A DNA stretch of 64,000 nucleotides from an uncultured bacterium (GTDB taxonomy: Bacteria > Fermentibacterota > Fermentibacteria > Fermentibacterales > Fermentibacteraceae), in the NCBI GenBank assembly GCA_964569245.1, contig CAZMTK010000003.1, positions 58,485 through 122,484 of the forward strand. Direction: 5' to 3'. The notes below the pieces were generated by a model that was given only the letters and a program-made list of their open reading frames with translations, searched no databases and had not been told where the DNA came from. Of the stretch, positions 25,876-60,604 are shown piece by piece. Both the position numbers and the translations under genes were made by a program. Within the stretch, counting starts at the first letter, position 1; every line of letters begins with the position of its first letter.

Positions 25876-26477
25876 CTCCGCCTCCCCGCCGCCCTGACCG
25901 ACGCCAGCACGGCAAGCACGGCGAACAGGGCGGTCCAGAACCAGATCTCGTAGCTCCTCATCAGCGACTCCACGGCCCTCAGGCTGCCACCGAGCATCGA
26001 GCCGGCCACCGCGAGCAGGGCATACCAGAGAAGGGCGCTGCCGCCAGCCCAGCAGAAGGCCCTCAAGGGATTCAGGCCGGAGTAGCCCGCGACAACCACG
26101 ATGGCGGACCGGATCCCCGGGATGAACCTGCTTCCGAGCAGAACCAGGCCGCCCCTGCGCTCGAAGAGCGCTTCGGCCCTCGCGACCCTGCCCTCCCCGA
26201 GGCATCTGAGAAGGAAGGGCCTCATCCTGCTCCTCCCCAGCCTCCTGCCGAGTGCGAGGAGGGCGGCGGTACCGGCCAGACACCCGGCAGCGCCGGCGGC
26301 GCCCGATGCCGCAGCAGCCAGCGCCCCGCCGCCGCACCAGCCCGCCAGCACCACGAAGAGCACGTCCCCGGGAAAGGGCGGGAAGAGAGTCTCCACCAGA
26401 GCGGTCGCGCCGAGCACGAGGTGTATCCAGGCTCCGGGGGGATGCCGGATCAGCCATGCGAGCAGCTCGTGGATCAT
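25872..26477 (-). CDS. DedA/SNARE-associated (VTT-domain) membrane protein
   Basis: ETLFPPFPGDVLFVVLAGW and GSRFIPGIRS motifs. The start is taken at M22 of the track ORF and overlaps the ispDF stop (ATGA). Confidence 0.7.
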   Translation of the reverse strand: MIHELLAWLIRHPPGAWIHLVLGATALVETLFPPFPGDVLFVVLAGWCGGGALAAAASGAAGAAGCLAGTAALLALGRRLGRSRMRPFLLRCLGEGRVARAEALFERRGGLVLLGSRFIPGIRSAIVVVAGYSGLNPLRAFCWAGGSALLWYALLAVAGSMLGGSLRAVESLMRSYEIWFWTALFAVLAVLASVRAAGRRR

Positions 26478-27625
26478 CCGGGGCGGTTCTCCATTTCCAC
26501 GAGAGCGATGCAGGCCAGGCCCTCCCCCCTGCCGAGGCATCCCAGCGAGTTGGTCGTAGTCCCCTTGATCCAGACGGCGTCAGGCCCGACGCCCAGTATG
26601 CCCGCCAGCCTTGCGAGCATGGCCTCCCTGTGCCGGGAGACCCTCGGAAACTCCCCGATCAGGGTGATGTCGGCGGATACCACCCGCCAGCCCCTCTCGC
26701 CGGCGACGGTGAGCGCGCGCGACAGCAGAACCGAGCTGTCCGCCCCCCGAAGAGACTCGTCGGAGGGCGGGAAGAGGACGCCAATGTCTCCCGCCCTTGC
26801 GCACGACAGCACTGCATCGGCTACGGCGTGAAGCACGGCATCGCCGTCGGAGTGTCCCTCAAGCCCCCCCGACGAGGACAGCCGGCAGCCGCATACGACG
26901 AGAGGCCTCCCTTCAGATGCCGGGTGAGCGTCGAAGCCCACGGCCATGCGCCTCGCTGGCGCAGGAGCGATCTTCTCGAGGAGCCTCAGGTCCGCCTGCG
27001 ACGTCAGCTTGACCCCGAGCGGGTCTCCCTCGACTGCGGACACCTCGAATCCCGCGATTTCGAGGGCGGCGCACTCGTCCGTGAAGTCGGCCTGGGAATC
27101 CATCGCGGCTTCCAGGATGTCCCTCCTGAACCCCTGCGGAGTCTGGCTGGCCCACAGCCCGGTCCTGTCCAGAGTGCAGGCGACCCTGCCGCCCTCGAGC
27201 CTCTTCAGCGTGTCGCTCACGGGTATCACCGGCACGGCCGCTCCAGTCCGCTCCGCCGCCTCGATCACCCTCGACATCGCGTCGCCCCCAGCGAAGGGCC
27301 TGGCAGCATCGTGGACAAGGACATGGTCTATGCGGGGGTCGAGGGCGGCGAGGCCGTTCCTGACGGAGTCCTGTCTGCGGGGGCCGCCCTCCGCGAGCAC
27401 GCATGCGACGCCCTCGGGCGGCGACCATCCGCCCGCACGTCCCTGCGGGAGGACGACGACTATGCTCCTCAAGAGGCCGAGGCCGGCCAGGGCGTCGAGC
27501 GCCCAGGACAGGACATGCCTGCCGGCGACCTCCACGAACTGCTTCGGAACGTCGCCGCCGAAGCGCTCGCCCCTTCCTGCCGCAAGCAGGACGGCGCCCC
27601 AGACGGGAGAGCGTCCGTCAGTCAC
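26474..27625 (-). CDS. ispDF: Bifunctional 2-C-methyl-D-erythritol 4-phosphate cytidylyltransferase / 2-C-methyl-D-erythritol 2,4-cyclodiphosphate synthase
   Basis: IspD motifs AVLLAAGRGERFG and VLVHDAARP. IspF motifs GFDAHP, SDGDAVLHA and GDIG. The start is taken at GTG (V46 of the track ORF), with a GGAGG 5 nt upstream. Confidence 0.85.
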   Translation of the reverse strand: MTDGRSPVWGAVLLAAGRGERFGGDVPKQFVEVAGRHVLSWALDALAGLGLLRSIVVVLPQGRAGGWSPPEGVACVLAEGGPRRQDSVRNGLAALDPRIDHVLVHDAARPFAGGDAMSRVIEAAERTGAAVPVIPVSDTLKRLEGGRVACTLDRTGLWASQTPQGFRRDILEAAMDSQADFTDECAALEIAGFEVSAVEGDPLGVKLTSQADLRLLEKIAPAPARRMAVGFDAHPASEGRPLVVCGCRLSSSGGLEGHSDGDAVLHAVADAVLSCARAGDIGVLFPPSDESLRGADSSVLLSRALTVAGERGWRVVSADITLIGEFPRVSRHREAMLARLAGILGVGPDAVWIKGTTTNSLGCLGRGEGLACIALVEMENRPG

Positions 27626-28670
27626 CTTCCTCCTCTTCGAACTCGACTGCTGCTGCACTGCCCGGATCGCGCTGATCCCTCTGCTCCGCCTCCTCGTCGG
27701 AGGCCGCGGGCGTTGCGAAGACCATGGTCCCCCCGGATGCGCGGAAAGTCGTGTGCGCAACCGCCTCCAGGGTCTTCCCGATCATGTCCTCGGCCTCCTC
27801 GACGACCACCATGGTCCCGTCGGAGAGGAAGCCCACGGCCTGGCCCTTGTTCCTGCCGCGCCTTATCGGCTTTATCCTGATCCTCTCGCCGGGCAGCACC
27901 ACCGCCTTGGTGGCCGCCCCCACTTCGTTCAGCCTGATGACGCGCACTCCCTCCCGGGCGGCGGTGTCGAGGAAATCGGGGTCCGAGCTCAGCAGCGTGG
28001 CTCCCTCTCTGCGCAGCCATTCGAGCATCCTGTTCCTCTGGCGGGCGGGCTCGCCGAAGTCCCTCTCCTCCAGACCTCCGGTCCTGCCGGCCGCCTCGGT
28101 CAGCCTCTCCAGTGTTTCCGCGCTCCTCCTGGCCCGCCCCCTCAGCACCAGGTCCTTCGATTTCAGCATCGAGTCTATCGAGGCTCTCGTGCCCGCCGGC
28201 ACTACGAACGGCCCGGTGAGCAGGCCGGTGAGCGCCATGTCGGCAACCCTGCCGTCGACCAGCGCAGTGGAATCGAGAAGCATCATCCTCGATCCGGAAG
28301 GAGCCGACGACCCGCCGGGCGCGATTCCCGGCGCGCCCCTCTTCCTCCCCTTGACCAGCGCCACATGGGCGAAGGCGTAGCCGAGGGCCGCCGGCACCAT
28401 CACCATGACCGGCGCCACCTTCACCCCCGCAAGGCTCAGCGTGAGCATGATCAGCAGCCCGGCCACCACCCCGGCTGCGGCACCGGCGACTATGAGGAAC
28501 GCATCCTCAATGGGCAGCCTGACGAACAGGAGCTCGATCGCCACGGTGAGCAGGCCTGTTCCGAGGCCCACCAGGCAGCCCACCCACCAGTTCCACTGCG
28601 GGGCGAAGCTGCCCAGCACCGTGAGCAGAAGCACGAGGAGGACGCGGGCCTCCCATCCGTTCGACTTCAT
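27618..28670 (-). CDS. yacL: PIN- and TRAM-domain membrane-anchored protein (YacL-like)
   Basis: N-terminal TM helices, a PIN-like region, a C-terminal TRAM-like beta-barrel and an acidic tail. Conserved position between radA and ispD, as in Firmicutes. Confidence 0.65.
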   Translation of the reverse strand: MKSNGWEARVLLVLLLTVLGSFAPQWNWWVGCLVGLGTGLLTVAIELLFVRLPIEDAFLIVAGAAAGVVAGLLIMLTLSLAGVKVAPVMVMVPAALGYAFAHVALVKGRKRGAPGIAPGGSSAPSGSRMMLLDSTALVDGRVADMALTGLLTGPFVVPAGTRASIDSMLKSKDLVLRGRARRSAETLERLTEAAGRTGGLEERDFGEPARQRNRMLEWLRREGATLLSSDPDFLDTAAREGVRVIRLNEVGAATKAVVLPGERIRIKPIRRGRNKGQAVGFLSDGTMVVVEEAEDMIGKTLEAVAHTTFRASGGTMVFATPAASDEEAEQRDQRDPGSAAAVEFEEEEGD

Positions 28671-30046
28671 GGAAATCCTCCTACTTCACGCGGCTGCGCC
28701 CCGAGCAGTGCGCTCATGCAGTCGCGCAGGGTATCGAAGCCGGAGCAGCCGCCTTCATCGGCGCGGCTGCAATCCTCCGCGCTTCCCGCGAGTGCGGTGA
28801 AGCCGAGAAACCGGGCCTCCCTGGCCCGTCTGTCGAACGATCCCGCCGGTCGCAGCTCCCCTCCCAGACCGACCTCCGCGCAGAGCGCGGTTCCAGGGGC
28901 TAGAGGCCTGTCGAGCCTGCTCGAGGCGACCGCCATGCAGACCGCGAGGTCGGCCCCCGGATCCGAGAGCACCGCTCCGCCCGCCACGTTGACGAACACG
29001 TCCTGCGAGCCGAGATCGAGCCCGCACCGCTTCTCGATCACCGCCAGCAGGAGCGGAAGCCTCCTGGCGTCGAGCCCGCTGGAGCTCCTCTGGGGGTACC
29101 CGTACCTGGTGGGGCAGGTCAGCGCCTGGACCTCCACGAGAAAGGTCCTCGTGCCCTCGACGGCTGCACAGACGGCGCTTCCGCTCACGCCGGGGGACAT
29201 CCTGGAGATGAACCAGGCCGACGCCTCTGCGACCCCGACCAGGCCCGAGGCCGTCATCTCGAAGATGCCGAGCTCGTTCGTCGAGCCGAACCTGTTCTTC
29301 ACCGCCCTCAGCATCCTGTGGCCCCGGCCCGGATCGCCCTCGAACGTCACCACCGAGTCCACCAGGTGCTCGAGGACCTTCGGTCCCGCCAGCATGCCGT
29401 CCTTCGTCACGTGCCCGACGAGGAGCGCAGTGACGCCCGACGGCTTGCACATCCCGACGATCTCGGACGCGCAGTGCCTCACCTGTGCCACCGAGCCGGG
29501 AGCGCCCGTCAGATCTTCGGAGAAGATCGTCTGTATCGAGTCCACCACGAGTATCGAGGCGCCGGTTCCTGGAAGCGCCTCCGCGATCTCGGACAGCGCA
29601 GCAGCCGGCATTACCAGGAGGCGCTCGGCCAGGGAGCCGGTTCTCCTTGCGCGCTCGGCGACCTGCTCCGCGGATTCTTCGCCGGTGGCGTACAGCACGG
29701 TCTCGCCTGCTCCGGCCAGCGCGGAGGCGAGCTGGAGCATCAGCGTGCTCTTGCCTATTCCGGGTTCGCCTCCGAGCAGGTTCACCGAGCCCCTGAAGAT
29801 GCCCCCCCCGAATACTCGGTCCAGCTCTGCGATCCCGCTCGCGAGCCTGGAGCCGGGTGCGGCGGGGATGGCCCCTACGGGAACCGGGGGCGGCGCGGGT
29901 CTCCTCGACGCCTGGCTCCGGACCGGCTTCTCGAGACTCTCCTCGACGAGGGTGTTCCATGCTCCGCAGGAAGGGCATCTGCCGCTCCAGGAGGGATGGT
30001 CGGCACCGCACTCGGTGCAGAGGAAGGCGGTCCTCCTCCGCGGCAT
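28667..30046 (-). CDS. radA: DNA repair protein RadA/Sms
   Basis: N-terminal C4 zinc finger (CTECGADHPSWSGRCPSCGAWN), Walker A GEPGIGKST, KNRFG motif, C-terminal Lon-like domain. Confidence 0.9.
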   Translation of the reverse strand: MPRRRTAFLCTECGADHPSWSGRCPSCGAWNTLVEESLEKPVRSQASRRPAPPPVPVGAIPAAPGSRLASGIAELDRVFGGGIFRGSVNLLGGEPGIGKSTLMLQLASALAGAGETVLYATGEESAEQVAERARRTGSLAERLLVMPAAALSEIAEALPGTGASILVVDSIQTIFSEDLTGAPGSVAQVRHCASEIVGMCKPSGVTALLVGHVTKDGMLAGPKVLEHLVDSVVTFEGDPGRGHRMLRAVKNRFGSTNELGIFEMTASGLVGVAEASAWFISRMSPGVSGSAVCAAVEGTRTFLVEVQALTCPTRYGYPQRSSSGLDARRLPLLLAVIEKRCGLDLGSQDVFVNVAGGAVLSDPGADLAVCMAVASSRLDRPLAPGTALCAEVGLGGELRPAGSFDRRAREARFLGFTALAGSAEDCSRADEGGCSGFDTLRDCMSALLGAQPREVGGFP

Positions 30047-31383
30047 CAGCGGTCGGACACCTCCATGAACCTGCCCCTGTAGGCCTCGAAGACCAGGTTG
30101 ATGACCCCCCTGGGGCCGTTCCTCTGCTTGCCTATCACCAGCTTCACCTCCCTCGCGGGCCTGCTTCCCTCGTCGGGGGTGCCCTCCTCGCCCTGGGCTT
30201 CGTGGATGAACATGACCACGTCTGCATCCTGCTCTATGGCTCCGCTCTCCCGGAGGTCGCTCAGCCTGGGAGGCCCGTCGTGCGTCACGGCTCTCCTGCT
30301 GAGCTGGGAGAGGGCTACGATGGGAACGTCGAGGTCCTTCGCGAGTGATTTCATGTCTCCCGATATGCGGGCGATCTCCTGCTGGCGGTTCTCCTCGCCT
30401 CCCATGCCCCTCATCAGCTGGAGGTAGTCCACGAAGAGGGCGCTCAGCCCGTGGCTCTTCTTCAGATGCCTGGCCTTGGCCCTCAGCTCGACGGCCGAGA
30501 GCGGCGAGCTGTCGTCGATGTACATCGGAAGGCGGTGGAGCCTGTCGGATGCGTGGGCCATCTCCTGGTACTGCTTCTGAGTCAGGGTTCCCAGGGCTAT
30601 GGAGTTCATGTTCACCCCGGCGTTCGAGCAGATCATCCTCTGTGCGAGCTGGCGCCCCGACATCTCGAGGCTGAAGAATCCCACTGCACCGGGATACTTC
30701 GACGCGATGTGCTCGGCCATGTTCAGGGCGAGGGTCGTCTTGCCCACGGACGGTCTGGCGGCTATCACCACCAGCTCACCGCCGTGGAGTCCCGTCGTCA
30801 GCTTGTCCAGGCTCTCGAAGCCGGTCGAGAGTCCCGTGACGAAGGTGCCGGCGCTCGCGAGCTTCTCCAGGTCGGCCATCCCGGTGGACACCAGGTCGGC
30901 GAGCGGCACGAAATCCCTGGAGACGAGGTTCTCGCCTATCTCGAAGATCCTCTTCTCGGCCCTGTCTATTATGTCGCGGGCTGGAAGCCTGCCCTCGACG
31001 ACGTCGCCCATGTTCATCTGGCTGGCCGACAGGAGCCTCCTGAGCATCGACTTCTCCCGGACGATCTCCGCGTACTGCAGGACATTCGACAGGATCGGGA
31101 TGTCCTCGGTGATGGAGGAGACGTACTCCACCCCCCCAGCCTGGTCGAGCCACTTCATCCTCTGCAGCTCGTCGCAGACCGTGACGAGGTCTATCACGCT
31201 GTTGCGCGAGTCGAGCTGCTGGCAGGCCCGCCAGACGAGCGCATGACGCTCGTCCGCGAAGTCGTCGGCGGAGAGCTTCGTGAAGAGCTCGACCGCTATC
31301 TCCGGGTCCATGAGCAGTCCGCTCAGCACGCTCCTCTCCGCCTCGACGTTGCGCGGCGGGACGAATCCGTGGATTTCAGCCAT
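30046..31383 (-). CDS. dnaB: Replicative DNA helicase
   Basis: DnaB N-terminal domain, Walker A GARPSVGKT, the H4 motif and the arginine finger. 445 aa, with no intein. Confidence 0.9.
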   Translation of the reverse strand: MAEIHGFVPPRNVEAERSVLSGLLMDPEIAVELFTKLSADDFADERHALVWRACQQLDSRNSVIDLVTVCDELQRMKWLDQAGGVEYVSSITEDIPILSNVLQYAEIVREKSMLRRLLSASQMNMGDVVEGRLPARDIIDRAEKRIFEIGENLVSRDFVPLADLVSTGMADLEKLASAGTFVTGLSTGFESLDKLTTGLHGGELVVIAARPSVGKTTLALNMAEHIASKYPGAVGFFSLEMSGRQLAQRMICSNAGVNMNSIALGTLTQKQYQEMAHASDRLHRLPMYIDDSSPLSAVELRAKARHLKKSHGLSALFVDYLQLMRGMGGEENRQQEIARISGDMKSLAKDLDVPIVALSQLSRRAVTHDGPPRLSDLRESGAIEQDADVVMFIHEAQGEEGTPDEGSRPAREVKLVIGKQRNGPRGVINLVFEAYRGRFMEVSDR

Positions 31384-31945
31384 TCCCGCCCCTCCTGGGC
31401 AGGCCCGTCTCGGCCAGCCGCGACCTGAGCTTCTTCATGTCCTCCCATACCGGCCTTCTGAGCGCCGGTGTTCTCAGGACCGCCGACGGATGGTAGGTAA
31501 CCATCAGCGATGCGGCGCCCCTGGAGTGCCAGCCCACCCTTAGCTGGGCGATGCTGGCCCTGCTCCCGAGGAGAGCCGAGGCGGCGCTCGCACCAAGCGC
31601 GACTATCACGCCTGGTGAAATGATCTCCAGCTGCCGCTCCAGGATCCAGCGGCATGCCTCCATCTCATCGGGCAGGGGCACCCTGTTTCCGGGAGGTCTG
31701 CACTTCACCGCATTTGCGATGTAGCAGCAGGTTCTGTCGAGTTCGATGGAGGCCAGGATCCTGTCGAGAAGCTGGCCCGCCCTGCCCACGAACGGCCTGC
31801 CTGTCTCGTCCTCGGTCTGGCCGGGACCCTCGCCGACGAAGACCAGCCCCGAGTCGGGATTTCCCTCCCCGAAGACCGTCTGGTTCCTCGTCTCGGCAAG
31901 GCGGCAGGCCCTGCATTGCGCCGCCTCCGCGGCCAGCTCGGACAT
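31376..31945 (-). CDS. udg: Uracil-DNA glycosylase, family 4 (4Fe-4S type)
   Basis: CRACRL, VFGEGNPDSGLVFVGEGPG (family 4 GEGPG motif), HPSAVLR. The start is taken at M50 of the track ORF. The alternative ATG at 32092 would add an atypical 49-aa extension. Confidence 0.75.
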   Translation of the reverse strand: MSELAAEAAQCRACRLAETRNQTVFGEGNPDSGLVFVGEGPGQTEDETGRPFVGRAGQLLDRILASIELDRTCCYIANAVKCRPPGNRVPLPDEMEACRWILERQLEIISPGVIVALGASAASALLGSRASIAQLRVGWHSRGAASLMVTYHPSAVLRTPALRRPVWEDMKKLRSRLAETGLPRRGGNG

Positions 31946-32072
31946 CGCCCGGCGCAGAGAGCATGTCGCAGGCTCCGTCTCCGGAGCACTGGACGCCGTG
32001 CGGGGCGCGGCCGCCCCGGGAGGAAGATGGACGACGTCCAGGCCGAAGGTGTGGACCGCGTGCCAGAGAGGA

Positions 32073-33362
32073 TCAGACGGACGCCCGGACAAGGCGCCTC
32101 CCCATCTCGAAGGCTATCCTGAGAGCGACGAACCTCTTCGATCCGCGGGGGATCTCCACCTGCCCGCCGGATCGCAGAAGCAGCACGCCTGCGTTTCCCT
32201 CCGACTCCATGCCGGTTCCCGGCACGTCTCCCCTGTTGCAGAACACCGCCTCGCAGTTCTTCGCCTCCATCTTGCCCCTCGCGTTTTCGAGAGCGGCGTC
32301 GCCGTACTCCAGCGCGAAGGCCAGCCTGGGGCACCGGCAGTCCAGCCCGGCCAGCAGGTCGGGGACCGGCTCCATCCGGATGTCGAACGGCCCGCAGGAC
32401 CTGTGGATCTTGCCGGGAACGCGTGCTGCCGGGCGGAAGTCGGCCACCGCGGCGGCCATCGCCAGGAGGTCGCAGCCCTCACGGGTCGTCTCTTCGAGCG
32501 CCGTGCCGAGGTCCGAGGCGGAAGTGAATCCCCTCACCACGACCCCCCGGGGGGGCGGCGTCGCGCAGGGGCCCAGAAGCAGGGTCACACGGGCCCCGAG
32601 GTCCCGGAACGCGGCGGCCAGCTCGCACCCCATCAGGCCGCTGGAACGGTTCGAGACGAAGCGGACGTCGTCGATAGCCTCCCTGGTGGGACCGGATGCG
32701 ACCACGACCCGTCTCCCCTCCCAGAGCCCGGAGCAGCCCGGGAAGAGAGCCTCGTAGTCGGAGGACACGAGGCTGCCCAGAGCCGAATCCGTGCGGGCCA
32801 GCTCCGCGTCGAAGACCGACTCCAGGAGCCTCCGGGCTTCGGGGAGCCCATCGTTGACAAGGAGATAGTCGAATGCGCCGGCCCATCGGATCTCCTCGGC
32901 CGAGGCCGTGAGCCTGTTCCTGACGTCCTCCGGGCTGTCGGTCCCCCTACCTGCCAGTCTCGACTCCAGAGCGCGCATGCCGGGCGGCAGAACGAAGATC
33001 AGCACCGCGCCGGGCACCCTTTTCCTGACCGCGAGGGCTCCCTGCACATCTATGTCGAGCACGACGCTGCAGCCCGACTCCAGCGCCGACGCCACCCATT
33101 CCCCGGAGGTGCCGTATCTCTCGCCGTGGACGCGGGCCCACTCCAGGAAGTATCCCGCCTCCACCCGCCTGTCGAACTCGCACGGGGTGACGAAGAAGTA
33201 GTCGCGCCCCTCCATTTCCCCCTCTCTCGGCCGGCGGGTTGTCGTGGATACGGAGAAGCGAGTGCTGCGCCTCGCCTCCACGAGATGGCGGGCGAGAGTG
33301 GTCTTCCCCGCCCCCGAGGGACCGGCGAGCACCACGAGGATGCCCCTGCCGCTACTCGACAT
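32073..33362 (-). CDS. gmk: Guanylate kinase fused to phosphopantothenate--cysteine ligase (CoaB/DFP domain)
   Basis: The N-terminal roughly 190 aa are Gmk (GPSGAGKTT, STTTRRPREGE). The C-terminal roughly 230 aa are a CoaB-like DFP domain (VSNRSSGLMG, AAVADFRPA). It is one continuous ORF. Confidence 0.75.
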   Translation of the reverse strand: MSSSGRGILVVLAGPSGAGKTTLARHLVEARRSTRFSVSTTTRRPREGEMEGRDYFFVTPCEFDRRVEAGYFLEWARVHGERYGTSGEWVASALESGCSVVLDIDVQGALAVRKRVPGAVLIFVLPPGMRALESRLAGRGTDSPEDVRNRLTASAEEIRWAGAFDYLLVNDGLPEARRLLESVFDAELARTDSALGSLVSSDYEALFPGCSGLWEGRRVVVASGPTREAIDDVRFVSNRSSGLMGCELAAAFRDLGARVTLLLGPCATPPPRGVVVRGFTSASDLGTALEETTREGCDLLAMAAAVADFRPAARVPGKIHRSCGPFDIRMEPVPDLLAGLDCRCPRLAFALEYGDAALENARGKMEAKNCEAVFCNRGDVPGTGMESEGNAGVLLLRSGGQVEIPRGSKRFVALRIAFEMGRRLVRASV

Positions 33363-34215
33363 TGGCGACCTGCTCCTTGATGGAGGCCATCTCGTTCTTC
33401 ATCTCCACCACGGTCATGACGTCAGAGGGGTCCTCGAGCTTGGATGCCAGCGTCGAGAGCTCCCTCTGCATCTCCAGCACCAGGAAGGAGAGCTTCCTCC
33501 CTGCGTCGTCGGAGCCCTCCTGCAGCAGGGCGGCCGAGGTGGCGAGATGCGAGCGAAGGCGCTCGATCTCCTCGCTCACATCCATCCTCTCCGCGAGGAG
33601 AGCGACCTCCATCGCCAGCCTCGCCTCGTCGAGCGCAAGGTCTCCCGCCAGGCGCTCTACTCTCTCACGGGTCCTCGAGAATCTCTCATGAAGCCTTTCG
33701 CGGCAGCCCTCAGAAAGGGGCGCCAGCAGCGACTCGATCTTCGCGATCCTCTCGAGCAGGATTCCGGTGATGACTTCTCCCTCCGCCGCTCTGGAGCGGC
33801 ACAGGTCGTCCAGGCAGGCGTCCAGGCAGGCCAGAAGGCACCCTTCGTCGGGGGCTGCGGAACCCTGGCCCTCCCGCCTCACCACGCCCGGGAAGGACAG
33901 GATGTCCGACAGCGAGAGCCCGCCCGGGAGACCCAGCTCCTCGGCGACGGCCCGTGAGGCGTCCAGCGCCTGTCTGGCTCGATCGAGGTCGACGATCTGC
34001 CCTGCCGGCCCCTCGGGCACGTCTATCGCGACCGACAGGTCTATCCTTCCCCTGGATATGCGGTTCCTGACCGCCGCCCTCACCGCCTCCTCCATCGGAG
34101 CGAGCGAGGCCGGCATGCTGAGCGCTATCGAGAGCCCCCTGTGATTGACCGAGCGCGCAGTGACCACCATCCTGAGCCCTCCGGACTCGCAGGAAGCCCT
34201 TCCGAATCCCGTCAT
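33352..34215 (-). CDS. yicC: YicC-family protein (stress-induced)
   Basis: MTGFGRA N-terminus and the conserved C-terminal EMKNE...EQV region; upstream of gmk as in many bacteria. Confidence 0.7.
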   Translation of the reverse strand: MTGFGRASCESGGLRMVVTARSVNHRGLSIALSMPASLAPMEEAVRAAVRNRISRGRIDLSVAIDVPEGPAGQIVDLDRARQALDASRAVAEELGLPGGLSLSDILSFPGVVRREGQGSAAPDEGCLLACLDACLDDLCRSRAAEGEVITGILLERIAKIESLLAPLSEGCRERLHERFSRTRERVERLAGDLALDEARLAMEVALLAERMDVSEEIERLRSHLATSAALLQEGSDDAGRKLSFLVLEMQRELSTLASKLEDPSDVMTVVEMKNEMASIKEQVANVE

Positions 34216-34385
34216 CGATTCCAGGGCAGACCTCCTTCCTCCAGTCTGCGGCTTCGGCCCGGGGCCGGCCGCCGGACAGCCAGACCGTCCCGAATCGGGG
34301 CCCCGCCGCGCGGAGGGGTTCTCCGGGCTCCGCCCGGAGCGTATCCGTATATACTAAGGGTTTCAACCCCCGGGGGTGTCATTCC

Positions 34386-35972
34386 TTGGACGGCGTCTAC
34401 ATCTCCGTCGTTGCCGGCAGGCTCGCGGAGGAGCTCGCGGGAAGCGCTTGCTCGCGCGTCACCCGCCCCTTCCCTGGAGGTCTGGCTCTCGCCTTCGGAG
34501 AGCGTACGCTCCTCCTGGACGCCAGACCGCCCTCCCCGGCGGTCTGGCTGGGAGACCGCGGGGCGGACGCAGGTGACTCTACGGCGCAGCCGTGGTCGGA
34601 CCATCTGGACGGGGCGAGGCTTTGCATGGTGAGTCAGGAAGGGCTCGACCGCATCCTCGTGTTCGAGTTCTCCCAGACGAGGCGGTACGGGAATCCCAAG
34701 GCGAGGCTGATCTTCGAGATGACGGGGAGGAACTGCAACCTGGTCCTCGCCGGTGCGGGGGACAGGATACTGGCATGCACGCGGGTCGTCTCGCGCTCCA
34801 TGTCGAGAGTGAGGATCGTCTGCCCGGGCGCCGTGTACTCGGGACCGCCATCCTCGGGGGCGGGGCCGGGGTCCTGGAGGGAGGAGTCCGTGATCGAGGC
34901 GCTCGGCAGGGCGACGTCCGCGGAGGACATCCATCCCCTGCTCGAAGGAGTGGGACCGGCGACGGCGGGCGCGATTCTCGAGGAGTGCCGCGCTTCCGGC
35001 AGGAAGGTCGCCGATGTGGTCGCCGAGCTCGGGGCGGCTCTGGAGTCGCGCGAGTTCGTCCCCTGGGCCTCCGCGTACGGACCGATGCCGATCAGGCTCG
35101 GAGCGGGGGCGCCGATAGAGGATGTCCTGTCGCCGCCCTCGGGTGTCGGGGCAGATGGCGCATCCCGGGAGGCTCTGGAGGATGCCATCGCCACCAGGCG
35201 GGCCTTTCTGGCGAGAAGGCTGGAGAAGCTGGAGTCAGCCCTCGACGGAGCCCCTTCCGCGGACCTCCTGAGGCTCCGGGGCTCCATCCTCCTAGCCAGC
35301 ATCCCTTCGGTGCCCCGGGGTGCGGAGGAGGTCGTCCTGCCCGACTGGAACGGAGTGGAGCACAGGATCCCGCTCAAGCCCGGGAGGAGCGCCGTCGAGA
35401 ACGCCCAGAGATACTTCAGGAAGGCGCGGAATGCAGGAGTCGAGAGGGGAAGGCTCGAAGCCTCCATCCGCGAGACTCGGAGAGCGATCGAGGAGCTGGA
35501 TGCGGCTCTGTCCGGCGGGGACGCGCCTGGCAGGAGCACCCGCCTCGCCGGGACGGTCGGGGGGGCACGGGGAGCGGAGTCTCGCAGCCCCTTCAGCAGG
35601 GTCATGGGCGGCGGCTGGACCTGCCTGGTTGGGCGCAGCGCTCGGGAGAACGACGAGATCACCTTCAGGATCGCCGGCAGGGACGACATCTGGCTCCATG
35701 CCAGGGGGGCGGCGGGGGCGCACGTGGTTCTCCGGCACGAATCCAGGGGGCAGGCACCTCCGAGGGCGGTCCTCGAGGCCGCAGCGGCCCTGGCGGCCGC
35801 CAGCGTGAGGAATCGTCCCGACGTCGTGCCGGTGGATTATACGAAGGTCAGGTACGTGAGGAAGTTCAGGGGAGCCGAGCCAGGCGAGGTGGTCTACACG
35901 GGGGAGAAGACGCTCTTCATCAGGCTGTGCGGCGTGCGCCGCGAGGGCGTCCGTTCTGAGGAGGCCAGGTGA
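34386..35972 (+). CDS. rqcH: RqcH/NFACT-family ribosome quality-control protein (fibronectin-binding protein A-like, DUF814)
   Basis: NFACT-N (MDGVYISVVAGRLAEEL), coiled-coil middle and DUF814/NFACT-R (GGWTCLVGRSARENDEITF...AGAHVVL). Confidence 0.7.
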   Translation: MDGVYISVVAGRLAEELAGSACSRVTRPFPGGLALAFGERTLLLDARPPSPAVWLGDRGADAGDSTAQPWSDHLDGARLCMVSQEGLDRILVFEFSQTRRYGNPKARLIFEMTGRNCNLVLAGAGDRILACTRVVSRSMSRVRIVCPGAVYSGPPSSGAGPGSWREESVIEALGRATSAEDIHPLLEGVGPATAGAILEECRASGRKVADVVAELGAALESREFVPWASAYGPMPIRLGAGAPIEDVLSPPSGVGADGASREALEDAIATRRAFLARRLEKLESALDGAPSADLLRLRGSILLASIPSVPRGAEEVVLPDWNGVEHRIPLKPGRSAVENAQRYFRKARNAGVERGRLEASIRETRRAIEELDAALSGGDAPGRSTRLAGTVGGARGAESRSPFSRVMGGGWTCLVGRSARENDEITFRIAGRDDIWLHARGAAGAHVVLRHESRGQAPPRAVLEAAAALAAASVRNRPDVVPVDYTKVRYVRKFRGAEPGEVVYTGEKTLFIRLCGVRREGVRSEEAR

Positions 35973-38146: not shown

Positions 38147-38374
38147 GTGGACAAGACGATACTGGAGCTCGAGAAGGGCGAGGATCTGCTGAGGGTGGTC
38201 CTCAAGGAGTTCAGGGGCCGCCAGTACATAGACGCCAGGATGTTCTACATGTCCGAGAACGGGGAGTGGCTGCCCACGAAAAAGGGTCTTAGCATGACCC
38301 CCGAGATGGCGGCGCAGGTTTCCGAGGCGATAGGCAGGGCTCTGGCCGAGCTCGAGTCGGGAAAGAAGCCTTAG
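38147..38374 (+). CDS. PC4/p15-like ssDNA-binding protein (YdbC-like)
   Basis: RVVLKEFRGRQYIDARMFYMSENGEWLPTKKGLSMT matches the PC4 fold pattern. 75 aa, GTG start. Confidence 0.55.
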   Translation: MDKTILELEKGEDLLRVVLKEFRGRQYIDARMFYMSENGEWLPTKKGLSMTPEMAAQVSEAIGRALAELESGKKP

Positions 38375-40725
38375 CCGCACTCCGAATAGCCGCAGTTCAG
38401 CGCGCAGGAGACGCAGCCCGACTCGTACTTGAGGGGTCCGCCACAGCTCGGGCAGGCCCCCGCGTGGTTCTGGAGGTCGTCGTCCCTGAACACCTCTGGA
38501 GCCCTCGCCTGAACGGGCTCCTCGACAGTGCCCGGCAGTCCCTCGAGGCGGTTCCCGGTGTGCCACTCCAGCGTCTTTCCTATTGCATCGGCGCAGGACA
38601 GTACTCTGTCGCTCCCCTGCCAGACGACCCTGTGGCAGCTTATCCCCTTGAGCTCGCGGACCACTGCGTCGGGCGGGATGTGCGATCTCAGCGCCAGCGA
38701 CACCAGCCTGCTGAGGGCTTCCGACTGGCTGGCGGCGCAGCCGCCGGCCTTGCCCATCTGGGTGAATATCTCGACCGGGCCGAACTCGTCCTCGTTGATC
38801 GTTATGTAGAGGTTCCCGCAGCCGGTGCGGACGCGCCGCGTGATCCCCGTGGTGACCTCCGGACGGGGCCTCGGGCCGGCGGCGGGCTTCTTCTCCGCCG
38901 GACACTCAGCGGCGCTCTCCTGCTGCCTCCCGATGTTGAGGACCTGCCTGTCCCTGCTCCTGTCCCTGTAGACCGTGACCCCCTTGCACCTGAGCCTGAA
39001 CGCGAGCTTGTAGACTTCGGCCACGTCTTCGCGGGAGGCGCTCTCGGGGAGGTTCACGGTCTTCGACACGGCGTTGTCGGTGTACTTCTGGAAGGCGGCC
39101 TGCATCCTCACGTGGAACGAGGGGGGGACGTCGTGCGAGGTGGCGAATATCCTCTGGACCTCGCTCGGCACGGCATCCAGGCCCCTGCAGGAGCCCCGTT
39201 CGACGATCTTCTCGATCACTTCCGGGGTGGCGAAGCCCCTCTCCCTCGCGACCCGTGCGAAGGAGGGCACCATCTCGTGGAGCTCGTCGCCCTCGTCGAG
39301 GATGTTCCTCCGCTCGTACGCCAGGGCGAACACGGGCTCGATGCCGCTCGCGCATCCCGCGAGGATGCTTATCGAGCCGGTGGGCGCAATTGTTGTCACC
39401 GTGGCGTTCCTCATCGGAGGGAGACCCTGGCTGTCGTAGATGCTTCCCCTGAAGTTGGGGAACGGGCCGCGCTCCCTGGCCAGTTCCTCGCTGGCCTGTC
39501 TGGCCCTGTCCTCGATGAAGCTCATGAGCTGCTCGGCGAACCTGAGAGCCTCCTCGGAGTCGTAGGGGAGACCCAGATGGAACAGCATGTCGGCGAAGCC
39601 CATCACCCCGAGGCCGATCTTCCTGTTCCCCTCGACCATGCGGGCTATCTGCGGGAGGGGGTATCTGTTGACCTCGATGACGTCGTCCAGGAATCTGACG
39701 GCGTTCTTCACGGTGCGGTCGAGCAGGGCCCAGTCGACTGCGGACGATCCGTCGGGCTTCGCCGTCAGCATGGCCGCCAGGTTTATCGAGCCCAGGTTGC
39801 ACGCCTCGTATGGAAGGAGAGGCTGCTCGCCGCAGGGATTCGTGGCCTCTATCCTGCCGAGGGCGGGCGTGGGGTTGGCCTCGTTCACTCGGTCGATGAA
39901 GATGATCCCCGGCTCTCCGGACGCCCATGCGCTCTCCACGATGTGCTCGAACAGCTCGGCGGCCGGGATGCTCGATACGGGCTCACCGCTCCTTGGGTTG
40001 ACCAGATCGAAGTCCCCGCCCCTCTCCAGGGCGTCCATGAATCTGTCGGAGACAGCGACCGAGAGATTGAAGTTGTTCAGCTTCTGCATGTCGCGTTTGG
40101 CGAGGATGAAGTCGAGCACGTCGGGATGGTCGATGCTCAGCACGGCCATGTTGGCCCCTCTGCGGACACCGCCCTGCTTTATCGTCTCGGTCGCCCTGTC
40201 GAAGACCGTCATGAAGGAGATCGGGCCGCTGGATATCCCCCTTGTGGACAGGACCACGTCGTCCTTCGGTCGGATCCTGGAGAAGGAGAATCCCGTCCCG
40301 CCGCCGCTCTTGTGGATGAGCGCGGTGTTCTTGACCGCCTCGAAGATGCTCTCCATGTCGTCCTCCACCGGGAGGACGAAGCAGGCGGATAGCTGTCCCA
40401 GCTCGCGCCCGGCGTTCATCAGCGTGGGGGAGTTCGGCAGGAATTCGAGCCTCGCCATCATGTTGTTGAAGCATACGGCCCACTTCCCGGAGTCCCCCCT
40501 GAAGCGGTCCTCGGCGGAGGCCACCGAAACGGCCACGCGCCAGAGCATCTCCGAGGGGGTCTCGAGAATCTCCCCGTCGGTGGAGCGCTTCAGATAGCGC
40601 TTGTTCAGGACCACTTCGGCATTCGAAGAGAACCGGGGGGAGATCCTCTCCTCCCGGTCCTCCAGCGCCGCCTGCCTCTCGAACTGCCCGAACAGGTCCT
40701 GACCGGGAGAAGCAGCCCCTCTCAA
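38371..40725 (-). CDS. nrdJ: Ribonucleoside-diphosphate/triphosphate reductase, class II (adenosylcobalamin-dependent)
   Basis: LNKRYLKRSTDGEILETPSEMLWRVA, NPCGEQPL active site, TIAPTGSIS, and a C-terminal CPSCGG...C zinc site. The 5' end is uncertain: the track start (GTG 40803) lies inside a promoter-like element. Candidate starts are TTG 40725 (with a GAGGGGG SD) or GTG 40614. Confidence 0.8.
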   Translation of the reverse strand: MRGAASPGQDLFGQFERQAALEDREERISPRFSSNAEVVLNKRYLKRSTDGEILETPSEMLWRVAVSVASAEDRFRGDSGKWAVCFNNMMARLEFLPNSPTLMNAGRELGQLSACFVLPVEDDMESIFEAVKNTALIHKSGGGTGFSFSRIRPKDDVVLSTRGISSGPISFMTVFDRATETIKQGGVRRGANMAVLSIDHPDVLDFILAKRDMQKLNNFNLSVAVSDRFMDALERGGDFDLVNPRSGEPVSSIPAAELFEHIVESAWASGEPGIIFIDRVNEANPTPALGRIEATNPCGEQPLLPYEACNLGSINLAAMLTAKPDGSSAVDWALLDRTVKNAVRFLDDVIEVNRYPLPQIARMVEGNRKIGLGVMGFADMLFHLGLPYDSEEALRFAEQLMSFIEDRARQASEELARERGPFPNFRGSIYDSQGLPPMRNATVTTIAPTGSISILAGCASGIEPVFALAYERRNILDEGDELHEMVPSFARVARERGFATPEVIEKIVERGSCRGLDAVPSEVQRIFATSHDVPPSFHVRMQAAFQKYTDNAVSKTVNLPESASREDVAEVYKLAFRLRCKGVTVYRDRSRDRQVLNIGRQQESAAECPAEKKPAAGPRPRPEVTTGITRRVRTGCGNLYITINEDEFGPVEIFTQMGKAGGCAASQSEALSRLVSLALRSHIPPDAVVRELKGISCHRVVWQGSDRVLSCADAIGKTLEWHTGNRLEGLPGTVEEPVQARAPEVFRDDDLQNHAGACPSCGGPLKYESGCVSCALNCGYSECG

Positions 40726-40781
40726 AACAGCCCCCTCGAAGCCAGAAGACCGGCAAAAGGATGTGACCCCGCAATGCTCGC

Positions 40782-40810
40782 AGTGTATGCAGAGCAATCG
40801 CACGTGTCAA
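40782..40810 (-). promoter_or_regulatory. Sigma-70-like promoter, TTGACA-17nt-TACACT, reading toward nrdJ
   Basis: On the minus strand, TTGACA lies at 40810..40805 and TACACT at 40787..40782, with a 17-nt spacer. It sits in the divergent intergenic region between nrdJ and the ECF sigma gene. Confidence 0.45.
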
Positions 40811-46441: not shown

Positions 46442-47394
46442 GCGCCTGGAGCAGGAACTTGATCGTGCGCTGGGCATCCAGGGCTGTTCTCGCAGTGCTG
46501 GTGCTCTTCGCTCTAGCTTCGGTGGCTGCGAGGTGGAGTGAGATCTCCGGTTCGTTCGAGAGGGTGAGCTGGTCTCCGGATCCGCTTGCACTCGCCGCTT
46601 CGGCGGTGATCCTGGCTGCATCGCTTGCATTCAATCCATTCGGCTGGATGATGCTCGCGAGAGAGCTGGGATCGGACACGTCCGCCGCCGGGCTGAGGGC
46701 TGCGTGGTTCGCCAGCCAGCTCGGAAGATACATGCCCGGCAAGATCTGGCTCTTCGCGGGCAGGATCGGGTTCCTGAGGAGCGAAGGGCTCTCCACTGCG
46801 CGCGCAGTCGCTGCCTCGGTCTGGGAGCTGGTCGCGGGCGCTGCGGCGGCAGGCGCCGTGGCCCTGCCCTGCATGCTGCTCTCCGGCGCCACGGACATCG
46901 CCCCTGCTGTGAGGACCGCAGCCACGGCGGCAGCCGCGGCGATGTTCCTGCTGCCCCTGCTGGGCCCCGTCCAGAAGGCTGCGTTCGCTCTGAAGGGCAG
47001 GTCCGCCTTCACGGGGATCCGGACTTCGGCAGGGCTGAGGGTGGCGGGCCTCTTCTGCACCCTCTGGGTGGCTCGCGGGCTCTCCCTCTACCTGTGGCTC
47101 ACCGGGCTGGGGCTGGAGACCCGCGGGTTCTGGCCCGTCATGGCTGCCGCGCCGCTGTCGTGGCTCGCGGGGTATATTGTCTTCGTAGTTCCCGGAGGCA
47201 TCGGCGTGAGGGAGACCGTGACGGCTGTGCTGGCGGCCCCTCCCGGCACGGCCGGCCCCGTTGTGGCCGCCTGCCTTTGCCAGACGGCGCTCATGGCCGT
47301 TCTCGAGATCCTTCTGGCGCTTCCCGCCTTCAGGGCGGCTCCTGGAGTCCGCGACACAGCGAAAGGCGGAGCAGATGGTGCGGATTCAGGCTGA
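46438..47394 (+). CDS. UPF0104 / lysylphosphatidylglycerol-synthase-TM (flippase-like) family membrane protein
   Basis: Multi-TM, with GRYMPGKIWLFAGRIGF and VVPGGIGVRET, which match my recollection of PF03706. The TTG start overlaps the epimerase stop (TTGA). Confidence 0.55.
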   Translation: MSAWSRNLIVRWASRAVLAVLVLFALASVAARWSEISGSFERVSWSPDPLALAASAVILAASLAFNPFGWMMLARELGSDTSAAGLRAAWFASQLGRYMPGKIWLFAGRIGFLRSEGLSTARAVAASVWELVAGAAAAGAVALPCMLLSGATDIAPAVRTAATAAAAAMFLLPLLGPVQKAAFALKGRSAFTGIRTSAGLRVAGLFCTLWVARGLSLYLWLTGLGLETRGFWPVMAAAPLSWLAGYIVFVVPGGIGVRETVTAVLAAPPGTAGPVVAACLCQTALMAVLEILLALPAFRAAPGVRDTAKGGADGADSG

Positions 47395-53541: not shown

Positions 53542-54782
53542 GTCGTCCTCCCTATGTCCTTCCTGTAGCGCGCCCCTTCGAAGCGCACCAGGGATGCGCC
53601 GCGATATGCCCTTTCGAGCGCCTCTTCCAGGTTGACGCCGGTGCCGGTGATGGAGACCACCCGCCCTCCGTCCGTCACGATGCGGCCGTCTCTCTCCGCG
53701 GTCCCGGCATGGAAGACCAGCGCCTCCCTCCCGGCCTCTTCGAGACCTTCGATCCAATGGCCCTTGGAGTACGGTCCGGGATAGCCGCCCGATGCGACCA
53801 CAACGCATGCTGCGGCGCCCTCCGCCCTGCCGACCTTCTCCGGCACGCCCGAACCGGAGGCGGCCAGGTGCAGGTCGCCGGCCAGATCGCCTTCGAGGAG
53901 CGGCAGCACTGACTGAGTCTCGGGATCCCCGAACCTGCAGTTGAACTCCAGCACCGAGACGCCCTCCTCCGAGACCATGAGCCCGGCGTACAGGATTCCG
54001 CGGTAGTCTATCCCCCTCGACGCGAGCTCTTGGAGGACGGGCAGGAACACCTCGCGCAGAACGCGCGCATCGAAGTCTGGTGCCAGGTCCGGGGGTGGGC
54101 ACACGGCTCCCATCCCTCCGGTGTTCGGTCCGGCATCGCCGTCGAAGGCCCTCTTGTGATCCCTCGAGGGAGGCAGGACGACTGCGGACGTCCCGCAGCA
54201 GATCGCCATGACGCTCGCCTCCCTCCCCTTCAGGCGCCTCTCGACAAGGAGACCGCGCACTCCCGCCGGCGAGGAGAGGATGGAATCGAGGGCGGAGGAG
54301 GCCTCCTCGAGAGTCTCCGGCAGGAAGACCCCTTTGCCGGCCGCCAGACCGTCGGCCTTGATCACCCAGTCCGACACGCGGTCGCCCATCCAGGAGAGGG
54401 CCGAGGACGCCGTCTCGAAGCGTCTGGCGTCGGCGGTGGGGACTCCGGCAGTCTTCATGACATCCTTCGCGAACCACTTGCTCGACTCGATCCTGGCCCC
54501 TGATGCACCCGGGCCGAAGCAGGCGATGCCATCCTCGCGCAGCGCCGTCGCCACATCCGCCTCGAGCGGCGCCTCGGGGCCGATGACCACGAGCCCGATG
54601 CCCGCGTCACGGCAAAGGCCCGCAAGCGCCTTTCCGTCCATGGGGGAGACCGGATGGCAGGGACCGAGCCTGGCCATGCCCGGGTTTCCCGGAGCGGAGT
54701 GCACCTCGTGCAGCCCGCAGCGGGAGAGAGCCCAGGCGATGGCGTGCTCCCTCCCCCCGGACCCTGCGACCAGCACCTTCAT
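53538..54782 (-). CDS. purD: Phosphoribosylamine--glycine ligase
   Basis: MKVLVAGSGGREHA, ATP-grasp motifs, 414 aa. Confidence 0.9.
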   Translation of the reverse strand: MKVLVAGSGGREHAIAWALSRCGLHEVHSAPGNPGMARLGPCHPVSPMDGKALAGLCRDAGIGLVVIGPEAPLEADVATALREDGIACFGPGASGARIESSKWFAKDVMKTAGVPTADARRFETASSALSWMGDRVSDWVIKADGLAAGKGVFLPETLEEASSALDSILSSPAGVRGLLVERRLKGREASVMAICCGTSAVVLPPSRDHKRAFDGDAGPNTGGMGAVCPPPDLAPDFDARVLREVFLPVLQELASRGIDYRGILYAGLMVSEEGVSVLEFNCRFGDPETQSVLPLLEGDLAGDLHLAASGSGVPEKVGRAEGAAACVVVASGGYPGPYSKGHWIEGLEEAGREALVFHAGTAERDGRIVTDGGRVVSITGTGVNLEEALERAYRGASLVRFEGARYRKDIGRTT

Positions 54783-55612
54783 CAGGAGTCGTCCTCCACG
54801 GGGGAATAGACCTGTCCGCGGGAGGGGAACCCCCCCGACCTCACCTCGGAGGCGTATGACCTCACGGCTCCGACCATTGCGTCGTAGAGCTGCGCGAATC
54901 TCCTGAGGAACCTCGGCTCGAAGCCCGGTGTGAGGCCGAGCATGTCGCTCGCGACCAGTATCTGGCCGTCCGTGAACCTCCCGGCTCCTATCCCTATCGT
55001 CGGGACGGATACCGAGGCGGTGACGTCCCTTCCGACAGACTCCTCGACGCTCTCGACGACCAGCGCGAACACCCCCGCCGCCTCCAGGGCCCGTGCCTCG
55101 CCCACGAGCCGGTCGGTGGCCTGGGCGGACGTCACACGGTACCCTCCCGTGAGCCTGACCGACTGCGGCAGCAGGCCGATGTGGCCCATCACGGGTATTC
55201 CGGACTCGACGAGAGCCGCGACTCTCTCGAGGGTTCTGGGTCCCGCCCCCTCCAGCTTGACGGCGTCGGCCCCCCCCTCGGAGAGGAAGCGAGATGCGTT
55301 CCTCACGGCGTCCTCGACGGACGCCTGGTAGGAGCCGAACGGCATGTCTCCCACCACCAGCGTTCCCGGCGCGCCCCGCCTGACAGCCCTCGCATGGGCC
55401 ACCAGCAGGTCCATGGTTGCCCCCAGAGTGGTTTCCTCGCCCATCACCGCCATGACCATGGAGTCCCCGACCAGGATGAAATCCACGCCGGCCTCCTCCT
55501 CGGCCCTTGCCGTAGGGCAGTCGTAGGCGGTCAGGGCCACGATCCTCTCCCCCCGCCTCTTCAGGTCGAGCAGGCGCTGGATGGTGCCCCTTCCTCGGTC
55601 CTCACTCCTCAT
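54782..55612 (-). CDS. panB: 3-methyl-2-oxobutanoate hydroxymethyltransferase
   Basis: TAYD, LVGDS, GHIGL(L)PQ motifs, 276 aa. Confidence 0.9.
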   Translation of the reverse strand: MRSEDRGRGTIQRLLDLKRRGERIVALTAYDCPTARAEEEAGVDFILVGDSMVMAVMGEETTLGATMDLLVAHARAVRRGAPGTLVVGDMPFGSYQASVEDAVRNASRFLSEGGADAVKLEGAGPRTLERVAALVESGIPVMGHIGLLPQSVRLTGGYRVTSAQATDRLVGEARALEAAGVFALVVESVEESVGRDVTASVSVPTIGIGAGRFTDGQILVASDMLGLTPGFEPRFLRRFAQLYDAMVGAVRSYASEVRSGGFPSRGQVYSPVEDDS

Positions 55613-60359: not shown

Positions 60360-60604
60360 CTCGGGATGCCTTCCGCCCGGCCCCCTCGGCCGGGTCTCTA
60401 GCGGCAGACCGCCTGCCGGCAAGGCCGGAAACTAAGCCGGCGGGGCGGGGAATGGCAACATCGGCCGCGCAGCGACAGGTCGAAGGGCGGGAGCGAGGGC
60501 TCCGAAGCCGCATCTGCCCGCGCGCTCCGAACTGGCGAAGCACTGGCCTTTCCCCGATAATCTGCACGAAGAATTCCGCGGACACTCTCTCCCGGGAGGT
60601 CGCT

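Follow-up and report, generated by a model that had tools for sequence, protein, structure and literature searches.

What becomes of coenzyme A (CoA) synthesis when the ligase domain CoaB is joined to a guanylate kinase instead of its usual partner, the flavoprotein CoaC? This question is raised by a gene, here designated gmk::coaB, in a stretch of 64,000 nucleotides (the window) from an uncultured member of the Fermentibacteraceae (contig CAZMTK010000003.1, positions 58,485 to 122,484). Its product combines a guanylate kinase (Gmk) with a phosphopantothenate-cysteine ligase (CoaB) domain. A preliminary description of this DNA, made from the sequence alone, had noticed the fusion and the lack of a CoaC half nearby, and had offered either a split CoA pathway or a different role for the CoaB-like domain as explanation. 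From the analysis presented here we consider it likely that the protein is a bifunctional enzyme consisting of Gmk and a CoaB of the CoaBC type, that it originated by deletion in an ancestor of the Fermentibacteria, and that CoaC acts in trans.

Two enzyme domains in one reading frame

The 429-aa product comprises Gmk (residues 9-186) and CoaB (residues 214-429) in a single uninterrupted frame. Both domains have Pfam matches within this one open reading frame (ORF), as the preliminary description had proposed, and the two CoaB motifs it had named, VSNRSSG and AAVADFRPA, are present in the checked translation. The codon-position GC content of gmk::coaB is like that of real genes of the window, with a third-position value (GC3) of 0.87 that is high along the whole frame. 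An AlphaFold model of the full chain, based on a 62-sequence family alignment, had a mean predicted local distance difference test score (pLDDT) of 89.7 and a predicted template-modelling score (pTM) of 0.81; the only internal stretch of low confidence, residues 191-210, lies between the two domains. A 100% identical database protein (P0001) is called from a GTG at 33335, nine codons downstream, and has 420 aa. The ATG at 33362 overlaps the stop of the upstream gene yicC by 11 nt. Since relatives have the same 8-11 nt overlap of yicC and the fusion, the longer ATG form and translational coupling are favoured.

By its sequence, the N-terminal half belongs to the guanylate kinase equivalogs. PF00625 (Guanylate_kin) matched residues 9-186 with an E-value of 2.2e-41 (Pfam), and the equivalog model TIGR03263 scored 209 bits against a cutoff of 160.45, with model positions 2-178 of 180 covered (NCBIfam). 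Solved bacterial Gmk structures matched this half with E-values down to 2e-42 and ~40% identity in structural alignments. The modelled Gmk half, in which pLDDT is ~90, was superimposed by Foldseek on E. coli Gmk (2anc) with a TM score of 0.87 and a root-mean-square deviation of 2.4 Å. Across 62 members of the family there is no variation in the P-loop residues G14, P15, G19 and K20, nor in S37, S39, T41, T42, R43, R46, E49, Y55, E74, Y83, G84, T85, D103, R135, R139 and R150. These invariant residues align with conserved positions of the solved Gmk structures, and those beyond the P-loop we take to be the residues that bind guanosine monophosphate (GMP) and the (arginine) residues of the LID. 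A loss of the P-loop as in MAGUK-like proteins has not occurred in the fusion family, and no second gmk is present in the 64-kb window. Like monofunctional bacterial Gmk (TIGR03263; E. coli 2anc, S. aureus 2j41), to which the identity is again ~40%, the fusion has a full-length Gmk that keeps the P-loop and the other conserved residues, and it is located directly 3' of yicC as in most bacteria. Unlike them, it carries a 240-residue C-terminal extension that contains a second, unrelated catalytic domain.

In a metagenome-derived sequence such a fusion could in principle be an artefact, caused by a frameshift, a misassembly or a read-through call of two genes. This has some prior plausibility, and three related entries (P0126, P0124 and P0122) are visibly frameshifted or truncated fragments. 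However, the coding signal of a single frame, with its high GC3, extends along the whole length of the gene, and 45 contigs, drawn from independent assemblies of NCBI, ENA and Logan, carry the identical protein. At least 120 diverged protein clusters (46-100% identity) have the same architecture with both Pfam domains and similar lengths of 413-449 aa. The 22-residue linker is too short to hold a stop, a start or a ribosome-binding site, and it is partly conserved (P197, G210, W214). We therefore regard an artefact as extremely improbable; a sequencing error, which the preliminary description had named as a way in which an artificial fusion might arise, does not account for an architecture that recurs across so many independent assemblies.

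The named members of the family belong to Candidatus Fermentibacteria, Fermentibacteraceae, Aegiribacteria, Sabulitectum and 'FCB group bacterium', and are always annotated as 'guanylate kinase' or 'hypothetical protein'. A HMMER scan of 1.84 billion representatives clustered at 50% identity recovered one full-length Gmk-CoaB protein (P0089) and three fragments, and no independent Gmk-CoaB fusion was present among these representatives. Nine other multi-stretch matches were Pfam-scanned as candidates for independent fusions and were rejected, all nine being tandem Gmk repeats. Because a second independent fusion would score well inside the listed range, the fusion is taken to be confined to the Fermentibacteria lineage, and it is a trait of this whole lineage. 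One 246-aa entry with only a DFP domain (P0124) was considered as the stand-alone CoaB of a relative and was likewise rejected: its N-terminus carries the fusion-specific linker consensus, which identifies it as a truncated fusion call. The next-best matches after the fusion family (P0121, P0123, P0125, P0128, P0141 and P0165) are proteins of up to 1102 aa with two or three tandem Gmk domains. In the literature searched there was no mention of a Gmk-CoaB fusion, nor of CoA synthesis in Fermentibacteria. The architecture appears to be undescribed so far, and it is systematically under-annotated.

Turning to the C-terminal half, PF04127 (DFP) matched residues 214-394 with an E-value of 2.8e-45 (Pfam). 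The match covers the full length of the domain (model 1-185 of 186), so the assignment to CoaB made in the preliminary description, which a failure to match this family would have overturned, holds. The coaBC model TIGR00521 aligned with the CoaB half only (model 185-388) and scored 133.5 bits, under its cutoff of 219.7. The models of stand-alone, streptococcal-type CoaB scored 34.8 bits (TIGR02114, cutoff 217.2) and 42.1 bits (NF005231, cutoff 265) and matched only the first ~95 residues of the CoaB domain. The difference between 133.5 bits on the one hand and 34.8 and 42.1 bits on the other indicates a CoaB half of the coaBC type, not of the stand-alone streptococcal type. The half aligned end to end, over 193-205 residues, with 5int, 4qji/6tgv (M. 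smegmatis) and 1u7u (E. coli), and in Foldseek the modelled CoaB half matched E. coli CoaB 1u80 with a TM score of 0.91.

In the fusion family the motif GPTREAIDDVRFVSNRSSGLMG is invariant in 121 members apart from its variable positions. Residues that are universal in 45 canonical CoaBC proteins and invariant in the family are G224, T226, E228, D231, R234, N238, S240, G242, M244 and G245, and likewise D308, K318, D335, E352, K364, K368, N376 and N390. N238 and K318 correspond to the catalytic residues N210 and K289 of E. coli (chain numbers in 1u7u and in E. coli Dfp differ by 180); both are invariant in the 121 family members and present in 44-45 of the 45 CoaBC proteins. E. coli mutant work reportedly assigned functional roles to N210 and K289, and the N210D variant is said to trap the acyl-cytidylate intermediate. 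The 1u7u crystal form has D at the N210-equivalent position. With all conserved CoaB residues kept across 46-100% identity, the family looks as it should under purifying selection for the canonical reaction, and since every universally conserved CoaB residue is invariant in the family, the Gmk and CoaB halves are probably both active enzymes.

Set beside CoaBC/Dfp (E. coli, PDB 1u7u-1u80; M. smegmatis, 6tgv), the fusion shares a CoaBC-type CoaB half with the same fold, the motifs GPTRExIDxVRxxSNxSSGxMG and AAVAD[FY]xP, the N210 and K289 equivalents, and a genomic place between gmk and udg/dnaB. It differs in having a guanylate kinase in place of the N-terminal CoaC flavoprotein domain (PF02441). 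With stand-alone CoaB (streptococci, enterococci; TIGR02114, NF005231; eukaryotic phosphopantothenate-cysteine ligase, PPCS, 1p9o) it has in common that CoaB is uncoupled from CoaC, the two steps presumably residing on separate polypeptides. In contrast to these, it falls far below the TIGR02114 and NF005231 cutoffs, its matches to human PPCS are weak and partial, and its CoaB is fused to Gmk with no coaC adjoining. The C-terminal half probably descends from, and works like, the CoaB half of a bacterial CoaBC.

Gene order and origin of the fusion

In all nine fused loci the gene order is the same as far as the contigs reach: NFACT (divergent), then yicC, the fusion, the uracil-DNA glycosylase family gene udg, dnaB, radA, an unknown gene and ispDF. 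The short overlaps between neighbours suggest that yicC, the fusion and udg form an operon. A scan of genome contigs with the family alignment, in which the matches listed stem mostly from the generic Gmk pattern LDIDVQGA, gave at least 79 unfused loci, which served as controls, and one fused locus (L010). Among the matches listed, which stem from many phyla, yicC was upstream of the unfused gmk in 72 of 79 loci, and 49 of 79 had CoaC or coaBC on the strand of gmk, at a distance of 38-587 bp downstream. In 45 of these 49 loci CoaC was part of an ordinary one-ORF coaBC. The preliminary description had assumed that gmk and coaBC are normally neighbouring but separate genes and that CoaB is normally fused to CoaC, and the control loci bear out both assumptions. 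Four loci (L025, Elusimicrobia; L031, Nitrospirae; L056, Lentisphaeria; L081, Verrucomicrobiota) have CoaC and CoaB in separate adjoining ORFs 3' of gmk, only CoaC being detected in L056; these could be real coaC/coaB splits or frameshifts in metagenome-assembled genomes (MAGs).

The distance between gmk and coaBC was 265-587 bp in 41 of the 49 loci, generally with rpoZ in between (clear omega-subunit sequences), and in the other eight the two genes abut. A gap of less than 120 bp, with no room for rpoZ, separates gmk from coaBC or CoaC in L018, L033, L046, L056, L065, L078, L081 and L083. This is the arrangement in which a single short deletion would yield a Gmk fusion. A hidden Markov model (HMM) of rpoZ, built from the control loci, matched 48 ORFs across the loci, and no omega gene was found with it in the window or in the Fermentibacteria loci L001-L010, L090 and L091. 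In this lineage omega is either encoded elsewhere, too divergent or lost.

The order yicC - gmk - coaBC - udg - dnaB, with CoaC present, was found in Gemmatimonadota (L011, L037, L039, L049 and L078), Edwardsbacteria (L067) and two unclassified MAGs (L013 and L079). Where the sequence reaches far enough, these eight loci continue with radA and ispDF. Their gmk, rpoZ and coaBC occupy the place that the fusion has in the Fermentibacteria order (window 26474-34215), and protein identities between these loci and the window amount to 31-53%. Given a syntenic order with gmk-(rpoZ)-coaBC in place of the fusion, the fusion looks like the result of a deletion of rpoZ and of the CoaC-coding part. We propose that an internal deletion occurred in the yicC-gmk-(rpoZ)-coaBC-udg-dnaB-radA cluster of an ancestor of the Fermentibacteria lineage, and that it would have brought gmk into one reading frame with the CoaC-CoaB connector and CoaB. 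On the simplest reading of the compared gene orders, one deletion would have taken the gmk stop codon, rpoZ and ~170 CoaC codons. The cluster yicC-gmk-(rpoZ)-coaBC-udg-dnaB-radA-x-ispDF as such shows an unusually deep conservation, without an obvious functional theme.

The linker DSALGSLVSSDYEALFPGCSGL might preserve a trace of this event. It is poorly conserved overall, with P197, G210 and W214 as partly kept positions, and its mean pLDDT is 53 for residues 191-200 and 70 for residues 201-210. The best-kept residue, P197 in the family, is S in the protein of the window; in the alignment it falls on the Pro of 'GRLAEP', the clamp motif of CoaC. The spacing from this Pro to the Gly of GPT(RE) is 27 residues in the fusion family, in the CoaBC consensus and also in E. 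coli Dfp. These features are no more than suggestive of a linker that is a remnant of the CoaC-CoaB connector.

CoaC and the fate of the CoaB product

CoaC was searched for with two queries. E. coli Dfp was run with phmmer against the six-frame ORFs of the window, and an HMM was built from 49 CoaC domains of the control loci. For this genome the screens covered ~84 kb, and for four relatives the 10 kb on either side of the gene. In the whole 64-kb window the Dfp query matched only the CoaB half of gmk::coaB. Since the same query detected CoaC in 49 control loci with E-values of 1e-28 to 1e-46, its negative result in the window is meaningful. The 49-sequence HMM found no CoaC in the 64-kb window (best E-value 0.5) and none in ~155 kb of locus sequence, taken from this organism and from four relatives that also carry the fusion. 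PF02441 was absent from the gmk::coaB product and from the Pfam annotation of its neighbours, window positions 13.2-22.1 kb being covered by phmmer and the HMM only. The missing CoaC half, noticed in the preliminary description, is thus a property of the locus and, as the defining CoaC domain was sought and not found, gmk::coaB is not a CoaBC. The only other gene of the pantothenate/CoA pathway seen in the window is panB, which suggests that the organism makes pantothenate and CoA de novo.

How would such an enzyme work? The kinase head would convert GMP and ATP to GDP and ADP. Dimerisation of the CoaB head would presumably involve its beta-sandwich, as it does in the CoaB structures solved so far. 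By analogy with bacterial CoaB, this head would use cytidine triphosphate (CTP) to activate 4'-phosphopantothenate to the acyl-cytidylate, to which cysteine would then be added. The dodecameric CoaC core of CoaBC, and with it the channelling of phosphopantothenoylcysteine to CoaC, is impossible in the fusion. As the CoaC core is absent, the CoaB product would have to leave the enzyme and reach a decarboxylase encoded elsewhere; phosphopantothenoylcysteine would be decarboxylated in trans by this CoaC, and we infer that a stand-alone coaC is present elsewhere in these genomes.

Several observations weigh against a bifunctional enzyme of deletion origin with CoaC in trans. The CoaC screens remained empty throughout the ~84 kb of this genome and the ~155 kb of related loci. 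The likeness of the linker to the CoaC tail consists of one proline and a spacing and is otherwise not significant, and the alignment of the coaBC HMM begins only at residue 215. Furthermore, the CoaB half departs from CoaBC at conserved positions. At position 243, 102 of the 121 aligned family sequences carry L, nine R and seven V, compared to K/R in 44 of 45 CoaBC proteins, so that the basic residue of SSG[KR]MG is replaced and the motif reads SSGLMG in this protein. The active-site flap is K-x-x-R in the family, with K318 and R321 invariant, as opposed to K-x-K-K in canonical CoaBC; among the 45 CoaBC proteins, 33 have K at the third position of the flap, while at the fourth 36 have K and seven have R. 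In M. smegmatis the K-x-K-K flap extends from the partner subunit and holds the CTP triphosphate, and 'few exceptions' to the motif are described (PMC7794376). Further changes specific to the family are V/A-T/S to G378-D379, F to M385 and V to G392. Taken together, these departures may leave room for an altered nucleotide handling or regulation. Finally, M. smegmatis CoaB deprived of CoaC is an inactive monomer (PMC7794376), so the activity of a CoaC-less CoaB is not guaranteed.

An alternative is that Fermentibacteria have no canonical CoaC, and either use a non-homologous decarboxylase or have recruited the CoaB-like domain to a different ligation. Neither the window nor any inspected fused locus holds a CoaC, and L243, K-x-x-R, G378-D379, M385 and G392 are lineage-specific at otherwise conserved CoaB positions. 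On the other hand, the family retains, across 46-100% identity, each residue that is universal in CoaB, the equivalents of N210 and K289 among them, and the inspected DNA represents little of any one genome. Separate coaB and coaC genes are known from other lineages, and the four possible coaC/coaB splits among the control loci would be similar cases. The panB gene in the window also points to a normal pathway. We consider a lack of canonical CoaC to be improbable. Of the two explanations given in the preliminary description, the split pathway is thus favoured, as the universally conserved CoaB residues are invariant, and a different role of the CoaB-like domain is disfavoured; the stand-alone coaC that a split requires would lie elsewhere in the genome, outside the ~84 kb inspected. 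In terms of the favoured bifunctional enzyme, the lineage-specific changes in CoaB may be adjustments to life without a CoaC core.

A further possibility is that the Gmk half took over the structural role of CoaC as an oligomerisation scaffold, or that it senses guanine nucleotides, in which case the fusion was selected and not merely tolerated. The need of M. smegmatis CoaB for an N-terminal partner, for dimerisation as well as activity (PMC7794376), would fit such a role. The fusion has also been kept without reversal in a lineage diverged to 46% identity, and the two-domain chain was modelled with a pTM of 0.81, a hint that the domains may be held in a defined orientation to one another. 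In contrast, E. coli CoaB dimerises and works alone (PMC7794376), the linker is poorly conserved and of low confidence, and the Gmk half retains every catalytic feature of a working kinase. As these kinase features are retained, scaffolding would be an added role and not a replacement. We regard a scaffold or sensor as unlikely. Both ideas can be joined into a single scenario in which CoaC was lost at the time of the fusion, a non-homologous decarboxylase or a remodelled CoaB chemistry took its place, Gmk became the dimerisation scaffold, and L243, K-x-x-R, G378-D379, M385 and G392 are the footprint of these events; this, too, we judge to be improbable. The fusion of Gmk and CoaB probably reflects ancestral gene adjacency, not a metabolic link between GMP and CoA, and no evidence for a coupling of GMP phosphorylation and CoA synthesis was seen.

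Features of the window and significance of the fusion

The coordinates of the fused gene, its parts and the neighbouring genes are given in Table 1.

Table 1. Location of gmk::coaB, its domains and motifs, and other genes discussed (positions within the window).
Feature	Position	Strand	Remarks
Whole fused gene gmk::coaB	32073..33362	-	429 aa, ATG start; stop codon 32073-32075; based on ORF list, Pfam, NCBIfam
Gmk domain, residues 9-186	32805..33338	-	PF00625, TIGR03263, structure matches
P-loop GPSGAGKT, residues 14-21	33300..33323	-	Checked translation
Linker DSALGSLVSSDYEALFPGCSGL, residues 192-213 (~22 residues)	32724..32789	-	Possible remnant of CoaC-CoaB connector
CoaB (phosphopantothenate-cysteine ligase) domain, residues 214-429	32076..32723	-	PF04127, structure alignments
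CoaB nucleotide and substrate-binding motif GPTREAIDDVRFVSNRSSGLMG, residues 224-245	32628..32693	-	With N238 (= E. coli N210) and L243, which is unusual
AAAVADFRP motif, residues 303-311	32430..32456	-	With D308
Active-site flap K318-I-H-R321	32400..32411	-	K318 = E. coli K289, by 1u7u alignment
yicC (YicC-like endoribonuclease), upstream	33352..34215	-	PF03755 and PF08340; last codons overlap fusion ATG by 11 nt
udg (uracil-DNA glycosylase family), downstream	31376..32092	-	PF03167; overlaps fusion end by 20 nt if TTG start; same neighbour in relatives
dnaB	30046-31383	-	Rest of conserved cluster
radA	28667-30046	-	Rest of conserved cluster
panB (ketopantoate hydroxymethyltransferase)	54782..55612	-	PF02548; abuts purD
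purD	53538-54782	-	purE adjoining

Some further features were noted in the window. The cumulative GC skew has its minimum at ~32000-34400, and the 170-bp intergenic region between yicC and NFACT (34216-34385) separates minus-strand genes on its left from plus-strand genes on its right, with dnaB 3 kb away. A replication origin at this strand switch (34.2-34.4 kb) was considered and dropped: the window contains 11 DnaA-box-like 9-mers, compared to 3.4 expected, and these do not cluster there, none being located in the 34216-34385 region. At 38147-40803, a ribonucleotide reductase large-subunit gene (PF00317, PF02867 and a TSCPD domain) and a gene for a 75-aa PC4-family protein (PF02229) are arranged tail to tail, with overlapping 3' ends. 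The same pairing recurs in loci of Aegiribacteria and the FCB group. Two large plus-strand genes have normal coding statistics and no Pfam match on record, namely one for an 880-aa product (60452-63094) and a 796-aa ORF (~47261-49651), to which a 758-aa product corresponds by position.

Gmk-CoaB is a new domain architecture of known enzymes. Both enzymes are textbook examples, and no new biochemistry is opened by their fusion; the interest would be higher only if it were true that these genomes lack CoaC altogether. The practical consequence concerns annotation. Since the named copies are labelled only 'guanylate kinase' and NCBIfam lacks a model of this architecture, metabolic reconstructions made automatically for Fermentibacteria would overlook CoaB or report a broken CoA pathway. 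For genome evolution, the locus offers a clean and datable case of a conserved, functionally unexplained gmk-rpoZ-coaBC cluster collapsing into a fusion by what would be a single deletion, and it cautions that a gene fusion is not proof of a functional link. The fusion can serve as a simple synapomorphy marker for the Fermentibacteria lineage. It is also a natural experiment on the question whether CoaB needs an N-terminal partner to dimerise and act, which bears on CoaBC as an antibiotic target.

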